In this document: positions 319-6,794 of the stretch, in pieces
Position numbering within the stretch: position 1 is the first letter of the stretch
Layout of the letters: the number at the start of each line of letters is the position of its first letter
Source: Bacillota bacterium
GTDB lineage: Bacteria; Bacillota; Clostridia; Christensenellales; SZUA-584
Reading direction: 5' to 3'
Assembly: GCA_023397655.1 (NCBI GenBank)
Contig: JAEWTW010000053.1
Coordinates: 2,836 to 66,835, forward strand
Length of the DNA: 64,000 bases
The notes under the pieces: model-generated
What the model saw: the letters and a program-made list of their open reading frames with translations, nothing else
The model's database searches: none
What the model was told of the DNA's origin: nothing
Made by a program: the position numbers and the translations under genes

Positions 319-915
319 TTAAGCACTTACCATATTGACCAGCAACTCCGGATCGGGCATCGTGAAGCCCGCCATTGTGATATTGTATATCGCGAGTCCC
401 ATGATGGCCGAGAAGAACATCACCGACATGCCCATCGTATCACCCTCGCGCACCTGCCCCGCCTGCTGCCCCTCCTGCAGCATCTTGGACATGGTGTTCA
501 GCGACACCTCCGAACCTTCGAGGCTCCTGTTCCGCTCCGGGCTCTCTTCCATCATCGCCGCGTGCGTGACAAGCAGGAAGAAATACGAGGTCTCCTGCCC
601 TGCCTGGATACCGCCCATGATGTACTTCGCCGTCTGCCGCACCTTCTCAATGGGCTCAAGCGGCAGTCCATCCACCATCAGCAGCGATTCGCCGGACACC
701 TTCACCGCTGTATGTACCAGCTCGAAGAATATCTCCTCCTTGCTGGCAAAATAGTGATACACCAGTCCGTGGCTGAGGCGGGCTTCCTTCGCGATGTCCC
801 CCACCTTGGTGGCTGCGAAGCCGCGCAGCGCGAACACCTTAAGCGCTGCCTTCAATATCTGCTCGCGCCTCTCGTCCTTGATTTGCGCGTTCTGTTCATC
901 CGTTCTCGGGCTCAT
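319..915 (-). CDS. TetR/AcrR family transcriptional regulator
   Basis: N-terminal HTH: REQILKAALKVFALRGFAATKVGDIAKEARLSHGLVYHYFASKEEIF. Start moved to the third Met (915), which has AAGGAG 6 nt upstream. Same strand as, and upstream of, the oxidoreductase at 1-205. Confidence 0.85.
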   Translation of the reverse strand: MSPRTDEQNAQIKDERREQILKAALKVFALRGFAATKVGDIAKEARLSHGLVYHYFASKEEIFFELVHTAVKVSGESLLMVDGLPLEPIEKVRQTAKYIMGGIQAGQETSYFFLLVTHAAMMEESPERNRSLEGSEVSLNTMSKMLQEGQQAGQVREGDTMGMSVMFFSAIMGLAIYNITMAGFTMPDPELLVNMVSA

Positions 916-931
916 TCGCATCTCCTTTTTG

Positions 932-949
932 ATTGACTTGTCAGTCAAT
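932..949. promoter_or_regulatory. Inverted repeat ATTGAC-N6-GTCAAT, candidate TetR operator
   Basis: 6-bp arms read directly from the sequence, 11-17 nt upstream of the tetR start. Confidence 0.3.
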
Positions 950-1258
950 ATATTATCACATGCATGCGGTTTGTCAATAGGCTTTTGGTAAATTAATGAG
1001 ATAATTTTCTAATAAATATGTTACTCATTTATAGCGCGGCCACTATGGTAGATGCCGCCGCAGAGCAACATCGCCATCAACGTCGTGGAATTTGACGACG
1101 TGGGCAGTGCGATGATATTAAGGTGTGGTTATGTGGGGCATGTGTGAGTAGGGCTTAGAGGCTTTCAATTCGATGTTCGTCTCTTTTATCATATTTAGGA
1201 AATCAATATTAACCTATAACAAGATTCAATATATACAGGTATAACTGTTACTTATTCC

Positions 1259-2056
1259 TTATTTTAAATCTAACACCTTCTCTACCTTTAATTTCTTATT
1301 AGAAATCAGCCTTAAGATGAAATCTTCATAATCTTCTTTGGGATATCTTGGGTTTTCAACTTGCTTATAATATTTACTAACAAAAGCCCTTGCATTACCA
1401 AGCGCAATCGACATAGGAGAGCCTTCATCAAACTCCTCAATTTCTTTTTCAATTTCCTCATATAGTATTTTTAGTTGCTTTAAATGCTCTTTTAAATCAA
1501 GTGTGGAGGATGATGAAAACTGAGTTTCAATTCTTAAATTTAAAATTCTTTCAATTTCAACTGCATTAGCTTTTTGACACTTGGTTCCCCTCCTTACATA
1601 AATAGTATCAGCAGAGATATTTTCAGTTTCAGATAATGATATAAAGGGTAATTTATCAGGAGTATTATGGATATGAAGTACTTGAAATTTTCTTCCTTTT
1701 AATTTTTCATATTCTGATGAGTCAAAGTTAAAATCCAATCTTTCATATTCAACACTTGATGGCACATACTTTCGTATCATATCATCAATTTTAGCATTAT
1801 CCAGAAATTCATTTATTCCTATTGGCTCAAATATACCATCATTGTTTTCTTCTACACCAAATACAATAAGGCCCCCACCAGTATTCGCCATGGAAAGCAT
1901 TATCTTGGATAGTTGCCCTTTATCAATCCATGAAGATTTAAAATCTATATTATCTTTTTCACCAGTATTGTCCAATAAAAATTTCCTGAATTCTTCTTTT
2001 GAAGGTTCTTTTAATAGCTCATACATAGAATCTTTTATTTGAGATTTGAAACTCAT
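1259..2056 (-). CDS. AlbA_2 (Schlafen-like putative DNA/RNA-binding) domain protein, 265 aa
   Basis: Pattern typical of AlbA_2: EPSKEEF...IDFKSSW...LSMANTGGGLIVFGVEENNDG...VLHIHNTPDKLPF...IYVRRGTKCQKANAVEIERIL. About 30% GC. Starts 5 nt after the stop of the upstream ORF. Confidence 0.65.
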   Translation of the reverse strand: MSFKSQIKDSMYELLKEPSKEEFRKFLLDNTGEKDNIDFKSSWIDKGQLSKIMLSMANTGGGLIVFGVEENNDGIFEPIGINEFLDNAKIDDMIRKYVPSSVEYERLDFNFDSSEYEKLKGRKFQVLHIHNTPDKLPFISLSETENISADTIYVRRGTKCQKANAVEIERILNLRIETQFSSSSTLDLKEHLKQLKILYEEIEKEIEEFDEGSPMSIALGNARAFVSKYYKQVENPRYPKEDYEDFILRLISNKKLKVEKVLDLK

Positions 2057-2061
2057 AAAAA

Positions 2062-3081
2062 TTACTCCTCAGCTTTTTTAAAAATATCCATCATATCTTT
2101 TCTATTTGGATCATTGAACAATTTATATTTAATAAATCTATTTATCCAATCCATTTCAGCATTTTCAGTTATTAATCTTATGATAGGGCCTGAATCAAAT
2201 TCTAAATCTAATTCGGCAACTAGACTATTATAATCTAAAGAAAAATAATCTTGATAGCCTTTACTTTCAAAATTGGGGAAGTTATCAATTAACTTTATAT
2301 TAAATTCTGGCTTAAAATGATTGATAAGTGCTGCTTCGAAGATATTAACAATTTGATTAAAATCATGAGCATGATCAAAAACATTGTGAAAATGTTTATC
2401 TTCTGCTACTTTATCTGCTGTTGAGTCTTGGTTAAACCCATCCATTGACATTTGGTTTAAAACATTAACCTCAAATAAAAAAACGTAAATACTATCTTCA
2501 CGTCTTTCGCATAGAAACTTGGTTAGTATTTTTTGTAGAGTAGAATGGTTGGTCAATCTTTCTTGAGCAGTCCGTTTACCGTCCTTCCCAAATGACTGCC
2601 CAATATAAAGCACCTCATAATTTTGAACTGTTTGAGTTTTTTCATAGTGCATATCCAATAGATAAGAACTTTCTATATTTATTATGAATTTTCCATCCCT
2701 AAATGCACTATTATCAAATTTAACTTGATTCTTATCAAAGACACTTCTTATATAAGCTTCTTCTGCTGTTATTCTTAGCACCTCATCATTACGCATAAGA
2801 CTATAATCCAGCATCATATAATCAATAAAGGGAATAGGCTTTAAATCATTGGCAGTTATAACCGTTGTCTTGTCATTATTTCTTAATTCTAAGTTCAGCG
2901 TAATTGATTCTTTGGCAGGAGCAAGCGAATCTGTTTGTATATATGTCCTGGGTTTACATGTAATAACATAAATATTATATACATGATCATCTCTATACTC
3001 GTAAACATATTCAAGTGGCATTATTGCTTTATGGCTTGTGTATATAACTAAACCGAATTCAGTGAAAAACTTCCTGTACAT
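2062..3081 (-). CDS. Hypothetical protein with GIY-YIG-like nuclease motifs in its C-terminal half, 339 aa
   Basis: Residues 155-261: NYEVLYIGQSFGKDGKRTAQERLTNHS ... IFEAALINHFKPEFN. This matches the ordered YIG / R..H / E...N signature of GIY-YIG nucleases. The N-terminal 150 aa carry no recognisable motif. About 30% GC. Confidence 0.45.
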   Translation of the reverse strand: MYRKFFTEFGLVIYTSHKAIMPLEYVYEYRDDHVYNIYVITCKPRTYIQTDSLAPAKESITLNLELRNNDKTTVITANDLKPIPFIDYMMLDYSLMRNDEVLRITAEEAYIRSVFDKNQVKFDNSAFRDGKFIINIESSYLLDMHYEKTQTVQNYEVLYIGQSFGKDGKRTAQERLTNHSTLQKILTKFLCERREDSIYVFLFEVNVLNQMSMDGFNQDSTADKVAEDKHFHNVFDHAHDFNQIVNIFEAALINHFKPEFNIKLIDNFPNFESKGYQDYFSLDYNSLVAELDLEFDSGPIIRLITENAEMDWINRFIKYKLFNDPNRKDMMDIFKKAEE

Positions 3082-3148
3082 AACTCCTCCTAATGATTAA
3101 GATAATTAGATTGTTGGATAATCTTTTAACTCAGTCAAAATAAAAATC

Positions 3149-3634
3149 CTACTCCCCCACCCGCTTCACGTACCCAAAGTGATACTTTCCGCCCGAGAGC
3201 ACGTCCGAGAGGCGCGCGCCGGTGTTGATGACGGTGAAATCGGCGGCGGTGAGCTCGGCAGGTTTCAGGCTGCGAATCTTCAGCCATGTGCTCCGCAGGT
3301 CGGCCCGCCATGGCTCGGGCGTCAGTTCCTCGTCGGGCGCAGGTGTGCGCTCCTTCCCTGTCGCGATGGCTGCCACCTCGGCCACGTAGTCCAGCGCCGC
3401 CGTTTTGCCCACAGACAGATACAGCTCCAGCACATAGTGGTAGTCAATCGCGTCCTGAAACTCGCAGCGGTAGCGCTCGGACATCCCCGTGGTAAGCGCC
3501 CCAGCAGAAAACCACGCCTCGCCATGCTGCGCGAGAAACACCTGGTATTCGCGTATGGTGTGCAGCCCGGACAAGCCGCTGCCCGCGCTGCTGCCCAGCC
3601 GTATGAAAATCGCGTGCTTGTAAACCTGTGCCAT
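3149..3634 (-). CDS. Hypothetical protein (161 aa), host-like GC
   Basis: Long ORF with high GC3. Start moved to MAQVYKHAIFIRLG. No family recognised. Confidence 0.55.
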   Translation of the reverse strand: MAQVYKHAIFIRLGSSAGSGLSGLHTIREYQVFLAQHGEAWFSAGALTTGMSERYRCEFQDAIDYHYVLELYLSVGKTAALDYVAEVAAIATGKERTPAPDEELTPEPWRADLRSTWLKIRSLKPAELTAADFTVINTGARLSDVLSGGKYHFGYVKRVGE

Positions 3635-3867
3635 AAAGCATCCCTCCATTGCCCGGCGAGAGCTTCATCGCCGGATACCGGGGTACCCCCAAAAGCGCAG
3701 CTGCCTGCTGGGGCCATTTACAGTTCCGCCGTCGTGTGTATATGAGTATGAATTTGCTGTGATTGGTGGTGACATGGAGAGTGACTTCAGATGCTAAAAT
3801 GATTATACCACAAGCAGCGCGTATGTTCCAATACCCCGCTGCTTTTTGAGGGTTGGGTTTTGCGTCT

Positions 3868-4506: not shown

Positions 4507-6794
4507 CCGTCCTGCCCAATCATATCCACCGTGAGCAGATTTTCCAGCAAATACTGCTTGTCGTATACCGTCATATTGACCGCCTCCCCGTATTCCAGAT
4601 AGAATGTGCAGCTGCCGCTGCTGACCCCCACGCTGATCAGGCTGCCCCGATAGCGGATACGAAATTGATATCCCGTCCAATCAGCCGGCAGCCACGGTTC
4701 AAAGAAAATGCCCTGTTCCTTCAGCCGAAACCCGCCGAAGCCATACACGATCGCCATGTAGTTGCCGCCCATATTCGCGATGTGCAGGCCGTCCTTCGTA
4801 TTTCGCTGCAGGTCCAGCAGGTCCAGATTCAGCGAGTTTCCAAAATAGTTGAACGCTTTCTCCTTTAAGCCCAGCCGGGATGCCACAATGCTGAATATGC
4901 ACCGGGACAGTGACGAATCATGCGTGGTGATATGCTCATAGTAGTTAAACGAGTGACGGATCGTTTCGCGTGACTGGGCGTCTTCCAGTATAAAATGCGC
5001 CAGCACGGTATCCGCCTGCTTGCAGATCTGATGCCTGTATAGGTGCAGCGGGTGGTAATGCAGCAGCAGCGGGTACTTGTCCTTAGGAATCGTGGCGATA
5101 TCCCAGAATTTCTTCTGCAGAAAAGCGCCGTCCTGCGGGTTTATTTTCAGCGCTTCGTCATACAGCAGCAGCATTTTCTCCGCCGCATCCCGGAAACCTT
5201 CAACTTCTTCGGCGGTTAGCGCGATACGCTTAATCAACTGCTGAAAATCTGGCATGTCGAAGAATCGTTCATACATCTTCACAGCCCAGCTCAGGTGATA
5301 CTGCGCCAGCAGGTTGGTGTAATAGTTATTGTTCACCATACATGTATACTCATCCGGACCCGTCACATCGTTGATATGAAACTGACCGTCCTTGAAATTG
5401 CCCACATCCATCCATAAACGAGCCGTCTCAAAAATGATCTCTGCTCCTTTACTGCGGATAAATGCCTGGTCGTCGGTGGCCAGATAGTAAGCCACGATCG
5501 CATAGGCAATGTCGCCGTTGATATGGTATTGCGCCGATCCTGCCGGAAAGTAGCCCGAGCATTCCCGGCCCATGATCGTCCGCCAAGGATACAGCGCCCC
5601 CTTCTTATGCCCCAAAATACGCGCGTTGTTTTTCGCCATCTCCAGTGTCTCATAGCGGTTTGAGATAAGGTTTTTTGTTATCTCGGGGTTGGTGATGGTG
5701 AAAAATGGCTGCACATACATCTCGGAATCCCAAAAGTACTGCCCTTCGTACCCCTCGCCGCTGAGCCCCTTTGCCGCTATGTTGCCGTATTCATCCTTGC
5801 TTGCTGTCTGCACCAGCTGAAAGAGGCTGTATTTGAGAGCAATATCCAGCGCTTCATCGCCGATAATGGACACATCACCGTTCCGCCAGTATTCCGTCAG
5901 GTAATCCTCCTGATGCTGGTACAGGTCCTGAAGCGGCACGGAGAGCGCTTTCTTCATATCCGCCGCGGCATGCGCTTTGCAGTCCTGCGCCCGTATCGAG
6001 TCCGCAAACACCGAATACTTGATCAGCTTTGTGGCCTCTCCCTCATTCACCGTCGTTACCATCTGGCACATTGCCGCATTATCGCCGATAATAAACTGCC
6101 GCTCCGTCTCTCCGGAAAGGAAATTCTTCACACAGCTGCATACTTCCAGATTCGATTTCGATGTCACCGCATTGATGTACGACGCGCCGTATTGGATGTT
6201 GCAGGAGACCGGCGACAGATAATGATACGCCCGGTCTGCAGTACGCGGGTCGTCCGGGTTGAAAAAGTTCATAGCATTACCGCTGTGCTGCGACTCGATC
6301 ATGATATCACCGGTGAAATTAATCGATTTAATCTGGCATTCAATCGTAAACAGCGACAGTATATGAAACGACACCATGCGAATGATCGTGATCTCAACCT
6401 CTTTGCCCAGCGGAGACCGCCACGACACATACCGTCCCGTCACACCCCGCTCCATGTCCACCCAGCGGCGGCTCTGAAGCACCGTCCCTGTGAACATGCT
6501 GAATGGCTCCTCATCAAAATAGATGCTGACTGACTGGGTATCCGCCACATTGAGTATGGTTTGCTTTTCCTGAACCAGCCCATACAGTTTTTCTGCCTGT
6601 TTGGCTTCCGTAAAATCATAAAACCCGTTGATGTACTGGCCTCGAATCGATTTATAGCCGTCCGGGTACCCCTCCTCAAACGCCGCGCGCACACCCATAT
6701 ATCCATTGGCGTTGTGGAACAGGGACTCATGAAGCAGCAGAGTATCGTTATCCAGTTTAATATCGTTCAGTTCATATATCGTTTTTCTGATCAT
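4503..6794 (-). CDS. Glycoside hydrolase family 65 disaccharide phosphorylase (maltose/trehalose/kojibiose phosphorylase type)
   Basis: 763 aa with GH65 organisation, including the catalytic-acid context GEGYEGQYFWDSEMYVQPFF. Followed by pgmB, as is typical for beta-G1P-forming phosphorylases. Confidence 0.88.
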   Translation of the reverse strand: MIRKTIYELNDIKLDNDTLLLHESLFHNANGYMGVRAAFEEGYPDGYKSIRGQYINGFYDFTEAKQAEKLYGLVQEKQTILNVADTQSVSIYFDEEPFSMFTGTVLQSRRWVDMERGVTGRYVSWRSPLGKEVEITIIRMVSFHILSLFTIECQIKSINFTGDIMIESQHSGNAMNFFNPDDPRTADRAYHYLSPVSCNIQYGASYINAVTSKSNLEVCSCVKNFLSGETERQFIIGDNAAMCQMVTTVNEGEATKLIKYSVFADSIRAQDCKAHAAADMKKALSVPLQDLYQHQEDYLTEYWRNGDVSIIGDEALDIALKYSLFQLVQTASKDEYGNIAAKGLSGEGYEGQYFWDSEMYVQPFFTITNPEITKNLISNRYETLEMAKNNARILGHKKGALYPWRTIMGRECSGYFPAGSAQYHINGDIAYAIVAYYLATDDQAFIRSKGAEIIFETARLWMDVGNFKDGQFHINDVTGPDEYTCMVNNNYYTNLLAQYHLSWAVKMYERFFDMPDFQQLIKRIALTAEEVEGFRDAAEKMLLLYDEALKINPQDGAFLQKKFWDIATIPKDKYPLLLHYHPLHLYRHQICKQADTVLAHFILEDAQSRETIRHSFNYYEHITTHDSSLSRCIFSIVASRLGLKEKAFNYFGNSLNLDLLDLQRNTKDGLHIANMGGNYMAIVYGFGGFRLKEQGIFFEPWLPADWTGYQFRIRYRGSLISVGVSSGSCTFYLEYGEAVNMTVYDKQYLLENLLTVDMIGQDG

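Follow-up and report, generated by a model that had tools for sequence, protein, structure and literature searches.

The 64,000-nucleotide stretch of Bacillota DNA analysed here (the window, whose coordinates are used throughout) carries near its start two adjacent minus-strand genes, one coding for a 339-amino-acid (aa) protein with the catalytic motifs of a GIY-YIG nuclease (hereafter GIY-like), the other for a 265-aa protein of the Schlafen (AlbA_2) type. We argue, with moderate confidence, that positions 1104–3148 are a low-GC mini defence islet, acquired by horizontal transfer, in which two independent single-gene nuclease modules are stacked. Two observations carry this reading. First, the islet occupies a slot whose content differs between strains. 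Second, the two genes do not travel together: a hidden Markov model (HMM) of the window's Schlafen family gives no strong match in 80 genome loci of the GIY-like family (from 80 species) and none in 22 viral-contig loci (IMG/VR), and reciprocally the GIY-like gene is found in 0 of 80 metagenomic loci of the Schlafen family (L086–L165, relatives at 39–53% identity). The first-pass annotation of this DNA had taken the two genes for a single system made of a nucleic-acid sensor and a nuclease, a claim which these counts do not bear out. From comparisons with characterised proteins and from gene neighbourhoods, we infer the nuclease activities, the substrates, the triggers and the defence role of both proteins.

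The slot and its cargo

The two open reading frames (ORFs; Table 1) are separated by 5 nt (2057–2061): the stop codon of the 339-aa ORF is at 2062–2064 and the next ATG, that of the 265-aa ORF, is at 2056. The ORFs, their coordinates and spacing, their low GC content and the motifs quoted for them are all present as first annotated. The GC content is 0.25–0.33 over 1200–3150, compared to 0.57–0.60 on the tetR side and 0.61–0.66 at 3150–3750; the two ORFs themselves are at about 30% and their flanks at 55–64%. The 339-aa gene starts 67 nt from the end of the upstream host gene.

Sister strains were found by looking up the contigs that encode a TetR protein identical to that of the window. Those with the same flanks (L175 and L180) carry a different cargo, a single 294-aa gene, which in L175 is also AT-rich (GC 0.27–0.40). 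A blastn comparison of L175 with the window shows 97–98% identity up to 3149 and from 1103 on, and nothing shared between them; the break on the left-flank side falls exactly at the stop codon of the 161/166-aa flank gene (3148/3149), and homology resumes at 1103/1104, so that the cargo is defined as 1104–3148. The cassette was initially placed at 1150–3148; its end at 3148 stands, while its left border is refined to 1104. The slot between the 161-aa gene and tetR is therefore a strain-variable hotspot, with an alternative allele.

The alternative gene lies at 4870–5754 of L175, in the slot equivalent to window 1104–3148, and is also present in L180. Its N-terminus is rich in cysteine (CALCG...SHIIPKF...LCGNCEG) and looks HNH-like by eye; the protein matches phrog_26326 at 2e-61, and gave no match in Pfam or PADLOC.

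The situation is reminiscent of the P2/P4 defence hotspots (PMC9122126), in which conserved flanks likewise enclose unrelated, alternative, low-GC cargo in one slot, and whose cargo, as here (phrog_15714 and phrog_26326), has relatives in (pro)phage families. The PHROG matches of the cargo proteins are solely to families of unknown function. Unlike the P2/P4 hotspots, the slot described here is chromosomal, between housekeeping genes and not within a phage or satellite; two alleles have been seen so far, and the defence role of both is putative.

No direct or inverted repeats were found at the borders of the cargo, there is no tRNA in the 64-kb window and no Rfam RNA in or adjoining the cargo, and the window's remaining 59 large ORFs, all housekeeping, include no restriction–modification (R-M), integrase or phage gene. 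An origin as a remnant of a prophage or of an integrative and conjugative element, which the first-pass annotation had named as something that would refute its reading, was examined and is rejected: the window has no integrase, no phage or conjugation genes, no att repeats and no tRNA at the border, and the alternative allele is a single gene. The 166-aa upstream gene is also rejected as a third component, since it is kept with both alleles, its GC content (unusually high) differs from that of the cargo, and its only matches are sub-threshold: a PUA-like Pfam family (E=0.065) and the NCBIfam model "DS9_1 anti-phage phosphoesterase" (E=0.009).

Regarding expression, both genes are preceded by a strong Shine–Dalgarno sequence, and that of the Schlafen gene falls within the last two codons of the 339-aa gene, which suggests co-transcription and possibly translational coupling. 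No terminator-like site was found in a scan of the interval between the two genes. Judging from these signals, the two genes are probably transcribed together here.

Table 1. Features of the slot and of its flanks, in window coordinates
Feature	Position	Strand	Basis
Strain-variable AT-rich cargo (islet)	1104..3148	.	blastn against the sister-strain locus L175, GC profile
339-aa protein of an unannotated family, GIY-YIG-type catalytic set, predicted DNA endonuclease, usually a solitary gene	2062..3081	-	ORF, family alignment, weak profiles
265-aa short prokaryotic Schlafen (AlbA_2), predicted tRNase-type effector	1259..2056	-	Pfam PF04326, family alignment
AGGAGG, Shine–Dalgarno for the 339-aa ORF, 4 nt from its ATG (3081)	3086..3091	-	read from the sequence
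GAGGAG, Shine–Dalgarno for the Schlafen ORF, 8 nt from its ATG (2056)	2065..2070	-	read from the sequence
Promoter-like site TTGACT-17-AACAAT, 9/12 matches, weak	3110..3138	-	consensus scan; precedes the 339-aa gene, within the cargo
Conserved left-flank host gene, 161/166 aa, GC 0.64	3149..3649	-	found with both slot alleles; outside the cargo
Conserved right-flank host gene, TetR-family regulator	319..948	-	Pfam TetR_N, E=3.5e-17; outside the cargo

The short Schlafen and its genomic contexts

By its sequence, the 265-aa protein is a Schlafen/AlbA_2 protein, as first annotated: PF04326 (SLFN_AlbA_2) matches residues 33–164 over the full length of the model (E=4.2e-14, 53.5 bits for a cut-off of 25.3). 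The protein has the motifs IDFKSSW, ANTGGGLIVFGV and IYVRRG, its Schlafen box reads SMANTGGG, and the catalytic E-x4-D-x-K motif is kept (E33-KDNI-D38-F-K40). An alignment of 48 relatives shows no variation at G32, E33, K40, N58, G61 and G62, and D38 is kept in at least 90% of them. The motif and the box correspond to those known from Schlafens of bacteria and of humans. The C-terminal ~100 residues form an unannotated domain.

Prokaryotic Schlafens (pSlfns) are described as tRNase effectors that act against phages and have their sensor domains fused in cis (PMC13056530; bioRxiv 10.1101/2025.07.24.666596), and about 17% of them are fused to unannotated accessory domains (Taboada et al., Nat Microbiol 2026, PMC13056530). 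Like the pSlfn tRNases of that study, the 265-aa protein matches PF04326 above threshold, has an E-x4-(E/D)-x-K motif, a SAFAN-like box and an unannotated accessory domain, and its family is found in defence-rich neighbourhoods; unlike them, it is very short, its C-terminal domain is uncharacterised and the activity of its family is predicted. By analogy, it most probably acts as an effector by itself and carries a sensor of its own. The role of sensor initially given to the AlbA_2 protein is thus probably inverted, considering that pSlfns are tRNase effectors (PMC13056530) and that the E-x4-D-x-K motif is kept here. As in characterised bacterial Schlafens, the protein would remain latent until its accessory domain senses infection; once activated, it would cleave tRNA and halt translation, leading to abortive infection.

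In the 80 loci of this family, the most common neighbours are the components of type I R-M systems: HsdS (Pfam Methylase_S), directly upstream and often overlapping by 4–8 nt, in 35 loci, HsdM (N6_Mtase and HsdM_N) in 29 and HsdR (HSDR_N, ResIII, EcoEI_R_C) in 32. If only the loci with enough flank are considered, HsdS is directly upstream in 31 of 61, and type I R-M parts are present in 15 of the 26 wide-flank loci. In L088 (6907–12137), for example, the order is hsdS-Schlafen-hsdR, with a 4-nt overlap and an 18-nt gap. About half of the loci are in other contexts, without R-M nearby, which makes the family a portable module. The copy in the window is one of these: there are no R-M genes in the 64 kb, so it is not between hsdS and hsdR. 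We found no mention in PMC13056530 of the type I R-M operon as the typical home of this family.

Two further observations concern the surroundings of the Schlafen gene. Large serine recombinases are encoded just upstream of it in 17 of the 78 loci with a called anchor gene (L104, L111, L117 and L119, for instance), and 7 of these 17 loci also contain type I R-M parts; this gene order suggests that the family is carried on recombinase-mobilised elements. In L172, the gene at 790–1584, directly upstream of the Schlafen relative P0097, gives a TIR-effector-like PADLOC match (4e-8). P0097 is 56% identical to the 265-aa protein and is among its three closest relatives.

The interval between hsdS and hsdR is that occupied by the anticodon nuclease PrrC in the prr locus, which encodes the type Ic R-M system EcoprrI. 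The 265-aa family resembles PrrC in this respect: in about half of its loci a predicted tRNase lies between hsdS and hsdR, at the position of a latent back-up effector. Unlike PrrC, which consists of an ABC-ATPase and an anticodon-nuclease domain, the 265-aa protein has a Schlafen fold, which is unrelated, and guarding is hypothetical. The residence of short Schlafens between hsdS and hsdR nevertheless suggests that Schlafen tRNases may back up type I restriction, as PrrC does.

This position also leads to another explanation of the tandem in the window, in which the short Schlafen serves, like PrrC, as a back-up: it keeps watch over a restriction-type nuclease (usually a type I R-M complex, but the GIY-like protein here and in L010, a Lachnospiraceae locus described below) and fires when the latter is inhibited by a phage. 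The short spacings in the R-M operons (4-nt overlaps or 9–18-nt gaps) argue for it, as do the existence of two independent tandems of a GIY-like gene and a Schlafen gene and the report that Schlafen RNases are back-up effectors in BREX loci (PMC12839542). We nonetheless consider it rather unlikely: R-M is not nearby in about half of the loci of the family, an AlbA_2 neighbour of any kind occurs in just 2 of about 103 GIY-like loci, the accessory regions of the two tandem Schlafens differ, and nothing supports the GIY-like protein as a restriction enzyme, whose cognate methylase is absent. A bolder proposal is as doubtful, according to which the 339-aa family is a class of single-protein defence nucleases with a split GIY-YIG site, whose GIY tyrosine would come from a strand ~120 residues upstream, and a fold that has no solved relative, and short Schlafens are PrrC-like guards behind restriction-type nucleases, usually type I R-M, occasionally the GIY-like enzyme, as here and in L010.

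Occurrence of the two genes as a pair

The pair is not conserved. Where the contig permits the check, the relatives closest to each protein occur without the other gene, and both families have uniform, stand-alone architectures. The first-pass annotation had stated that its reading would fall if the two genes never adjoin elsewhere, and this is essentially the case. The single exception, one of the 80 genome loci, is L010 (4400–9200, a Lachnospiraceae metagenome-assembled genome), in which a 386-aa AlbA_2 protein is encoded 22 nt downstream of a GIY-like gene, in an AT-rich islet; this protein has the Schlafen box alone in common with the Schlafen of the window. The gene for the 386-aa protein in L010 is followed by one for a 453-aa protein whose N-terminus is CapP-like and whose C-terminus is PDC-S04-like.

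The alternative is that the two genes form an obligate system, with the AlbA_2 protein as the nucleic-acid sensor that allows the GIY-YIG nuclease to act, or with these roles exchanged. Some observations go in this direction, and thereby weigh against the stacking of independent modules: the tight 5-nt spacing and the ribosome-binding site inside the upstream gene hint at functional coupling, the same spacing and the common low GC content would mean that the genes were acquired and are expressed together, and the second, independent tandem of L010, with its 22-nt spacing and its AT-rich islet, also hints at coupling. We judge such a system quite improbable, since the pair is absent from the 80 and 22 loci of one family and the 80 of the other, neither protein has its nearest relatives in such a pair, both families have uniform, stand-alone architectures, the AlbA_2 protein of L010 is unrelated outside the Schlafen box, and Schlafen domains are effectors whose sensors are fused in cis. 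Two independent tandems in about 103 loci are still a weak hint, and are compatible with the co-residence of defence genes. A toxin–antitoxin pair is rejected, since neither family needs the other. The independence of the two modules, which we favour, implies that the tight tandem spacing seen in one genome was no evidence of a system: the hotspot stacks modules.

The GIY-like protein

The 339-aa protein belongs to a widespread family. A word-index search returned 93 homologues, all "hypothetical" and without any Pfam domain, and an exhaustive profile search with the family gave 1,284 clusters at 50% identity, 960 of them at E<=1e-10. The members are nearly all 300–340 aa long and match end to end; they occur in 134 GTDB species from many phyla (Bacillota, Bacteroidota, Pseudomonadota, Cyanobacteriota, and a Methanococcus). 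The motifs of the window protein are VLYIGQS (157–163), R170, R175, H179, E249 and N261. When 225 diverse family members are aligned, R175 and H179 are kept in 225/225, E249 in 224/224, Y159 (of Y159-I-G161) and N261 in 224/225, and a tyrosine further upstream, Y38 (of [H/N]-I-Y38), in 221/222.

Several comparisons point to the GIY-YIG enzymes. Two Pfam families of the GIY-YIG clan match below threshold and at colinear positions: GIY_YIG_2 at residues 143–180 (13.7–16 bits for a cut-off of 22.4) and RE_Eco29kI at residues 242–270 (14.2 bits for a cut-off of 30.8); of the 39 family members tested, 10 give a weak match of this kind to one of the two models and 5 to the other. When the family profile is searched against the PDB (177,635 sequences), the top matches are the GIY-YIG domains of UvrC from two species and R.Eco29kI, at E=0.02–0.5, UvrC being the best (E=0.02–0.05). 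When hhalign is run against an alignment of 37 PF01541 proteins, the local match falls on the Glu...Asn helix (P=3e-4 with the whole 339-aa protein, 6e-5 with the core). In a relaxed setting the alignment extends colinearly and pairs Y159, R175, H179, E249 and N261 with Y29, R39, Y43, E76 and N88 of UvrC; the first three pairs are obtained in relaxed or global alignments only. The separation of E249 and N261 (12 residues, E-x11-N) is the same as that of E76 and N88 in UvrC, and R175 and H179 are in the R-x3-H spacing that is also found in I-TevI. Last, in the AlphaFold2 (AF2) model (m99af808463d8; predicted local distance difference test, pLDDT, 89.8; predicted template-modelling score, pTM, 0.88), DSSP assigns a strand at 152–162, helices at 172–177 and 180–191, a strand at 196–213, an insert and a helix at 241–256; this predicted order fits the GIY-YIG core.

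On this basis, we think it quite probable that the 339-aa protein is a GIY-YIG-type nuclease. Membership at the level of the fold is not proven, because Foldseek gave no match and all Pfam scores are sub-threshold; the assignment first made from the sequence thus holds at the level of motifs and weak profiles, and does not extend to a Pfam threshold or to a fold match.

A number of results speak against the assignment. No GIY-YIG model reaches the Pfam gathering score for the 339-aa protein, and neither PADLOC nor NCBIfam has a model for it or for the 265-aa protein. The hhalign similarity is significant over ~21 columns around the Glu...Asn helix. The family has no conserved tyrosine in the 20 residues before YIG, so that the canonical first tyrosine, that of "GIY", is missing from its usual place. 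A Foldseek search of the full model against 350,542 PDB chains and BFVD returned nothing at E<=1e-3 and no GIY-YIG enzyme among the top 50, the top of the list being noise (template-modelling score ~0.1, lipocalins and spike proteins). Finally, a divergent subfamily on Priestia plasmids keeps YIG, Glu and Asn, and has a Glu in place of R175 and an Asp in place of H179.

It could be, then, that the motif is convergent and that the protein has another activity on a novel fold. The absence of a GIY-YIG match in Foldseek despite a pLDDT of 90, the narrow range of the profile similarity, the substitutions tolerated in the Priestia subfamily and the fact that the isolated core (residues 148–275) fails to fold in AF2 (pLDDT 58, strands lost) would all agree with this. 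However, five catalytic positions are colinear and essentially invariant, with spacings like those of UvrC and I-TevI, three independent top matches in the PDB are all GIY-YIG enzymes, and the order of secondary structures fits; we find a convergent motif decidedly improbable. Since the core does not fold alone in AF2, we consider that the site of this GIY-YIG-type protein is embedded in a larger, family-specific fold.

Regarding the missing tyrosine, the near-invariant [H/N]-I-Y38 lies ~120 residues upstream of YIG, across an insertion of ~110 aa, and may supply the "GIY" tyrosine. Splicing out residues 49–150, which brings [H/N]-I-Y beside YIG, improves the HMMER/Pfam E-values two- to four-fold at best: GIY_YIG_2 is still sub-threshold, RE_Eco29kI goes up or down depending on the member, and the aligned region does not lengthen.

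Like the N-terminal domain of UvrC (1YCZ/1YD6) and R.Eco29kI (3NIC), the protein has the Tyr of YIG, Arg, His/Tyr, Glu and Asn in the same order, and the beta-alpha-alpha-beta-alpha succession of GIY-YIG enzymes is also predicted for it. Unlike them, it has insertions of ~6 and ~25 residues and, at both termini, large beta-rich parts specific to the family, and neither a methylase nor a UvrB-type protein accompanies it. An Eco29kI-like type II R-M system is rejected: the cargo and the rest of the window lack a methyltransferase, and none is recurrent beside the family in 80 loci. The 339-aa protein is presumably a metal-dependent DNA endonuclease that acts alone, in a restriction-like or abortive manner, and its trigger or specificity would come from the beta-rich N- and C-terminal parts.

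The gene has no recurrent neighbour. An all-against-all clustering of the 1,368 ORFs within 5 kb gave clusters present in no more than 3 loci, and in a Pfam scan of 129 immediate neighbours every family was likewise found in at most 3 loci. Among the immediate neighbours elsewhere are strong matches to known defence proteins (GajB, Old, SduA, Drt2, LmuB, mad3, PDC-S02 and PDC-S06); others are integrases, AbiEii-like ATPases, YhcG and DUF3732 proteins. Relatives also occur in 22 IMG/VR viral contigs and in phrog_15714, while a tblastn search of 50,697 deposited phage genomes gave no GIY-like match. It must be said, against a role in defence, that many GIY-like loci are surrounded by ordinary housekeeping genes. 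Since the slot is strain-variable and members of the family elsewhere adjoin known defence genes, among others, we consider a defence-type role plausible. If the family is indeed a defence nuclease, then a widespread, unannotated family with an unusual GIY-YIG-type architecture joins the immune repertoire.

That the cargo has nothing to do with immunity and is selfish or mobile baggage (for instance a GIY-YIG endonuclease of the free-standing homing kind, a function that maintains a plasmid or prophage, or a remnant in decay) is very unlikely: GIY-YIG enzymes do include homing endonucleases, relatives of the 339-aa gene occur in prophages and beside rep genes on plasmids, and serine-recombinase elements target the gene or are fused to it, but both ORFs are intact and strongly conserved with invariant catalytic residues, the locus has no intron, intein, phage context, integrase or repeats, the gene occurs as one copy, in chromosomal surroundings that vary and include defence genes, and the deposited phage genomes contain no match.

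The Priestia subfamily is found on 28 plasmid records, two genes after the replication gene (for example L181, 4313–5182, on pBM400, and L182 on pBM500); the copy on pBM500 has an in-frame stop. This subfamily may represent a branch that has lost its catalytic activity or taken on another function.

Last, we note that in two proteins of 562–565 aa (P0051 and P0052) the 3' half of a GIY-like gene is joined, in frame, to the gene for a large serine recombinase, and that the join is directly after the YIGQ motif (residue 165 of the 339-aa protein). This fusion suggests that in some gut bacteria a recombinase-bearing element integrates into the GIY-like gene.

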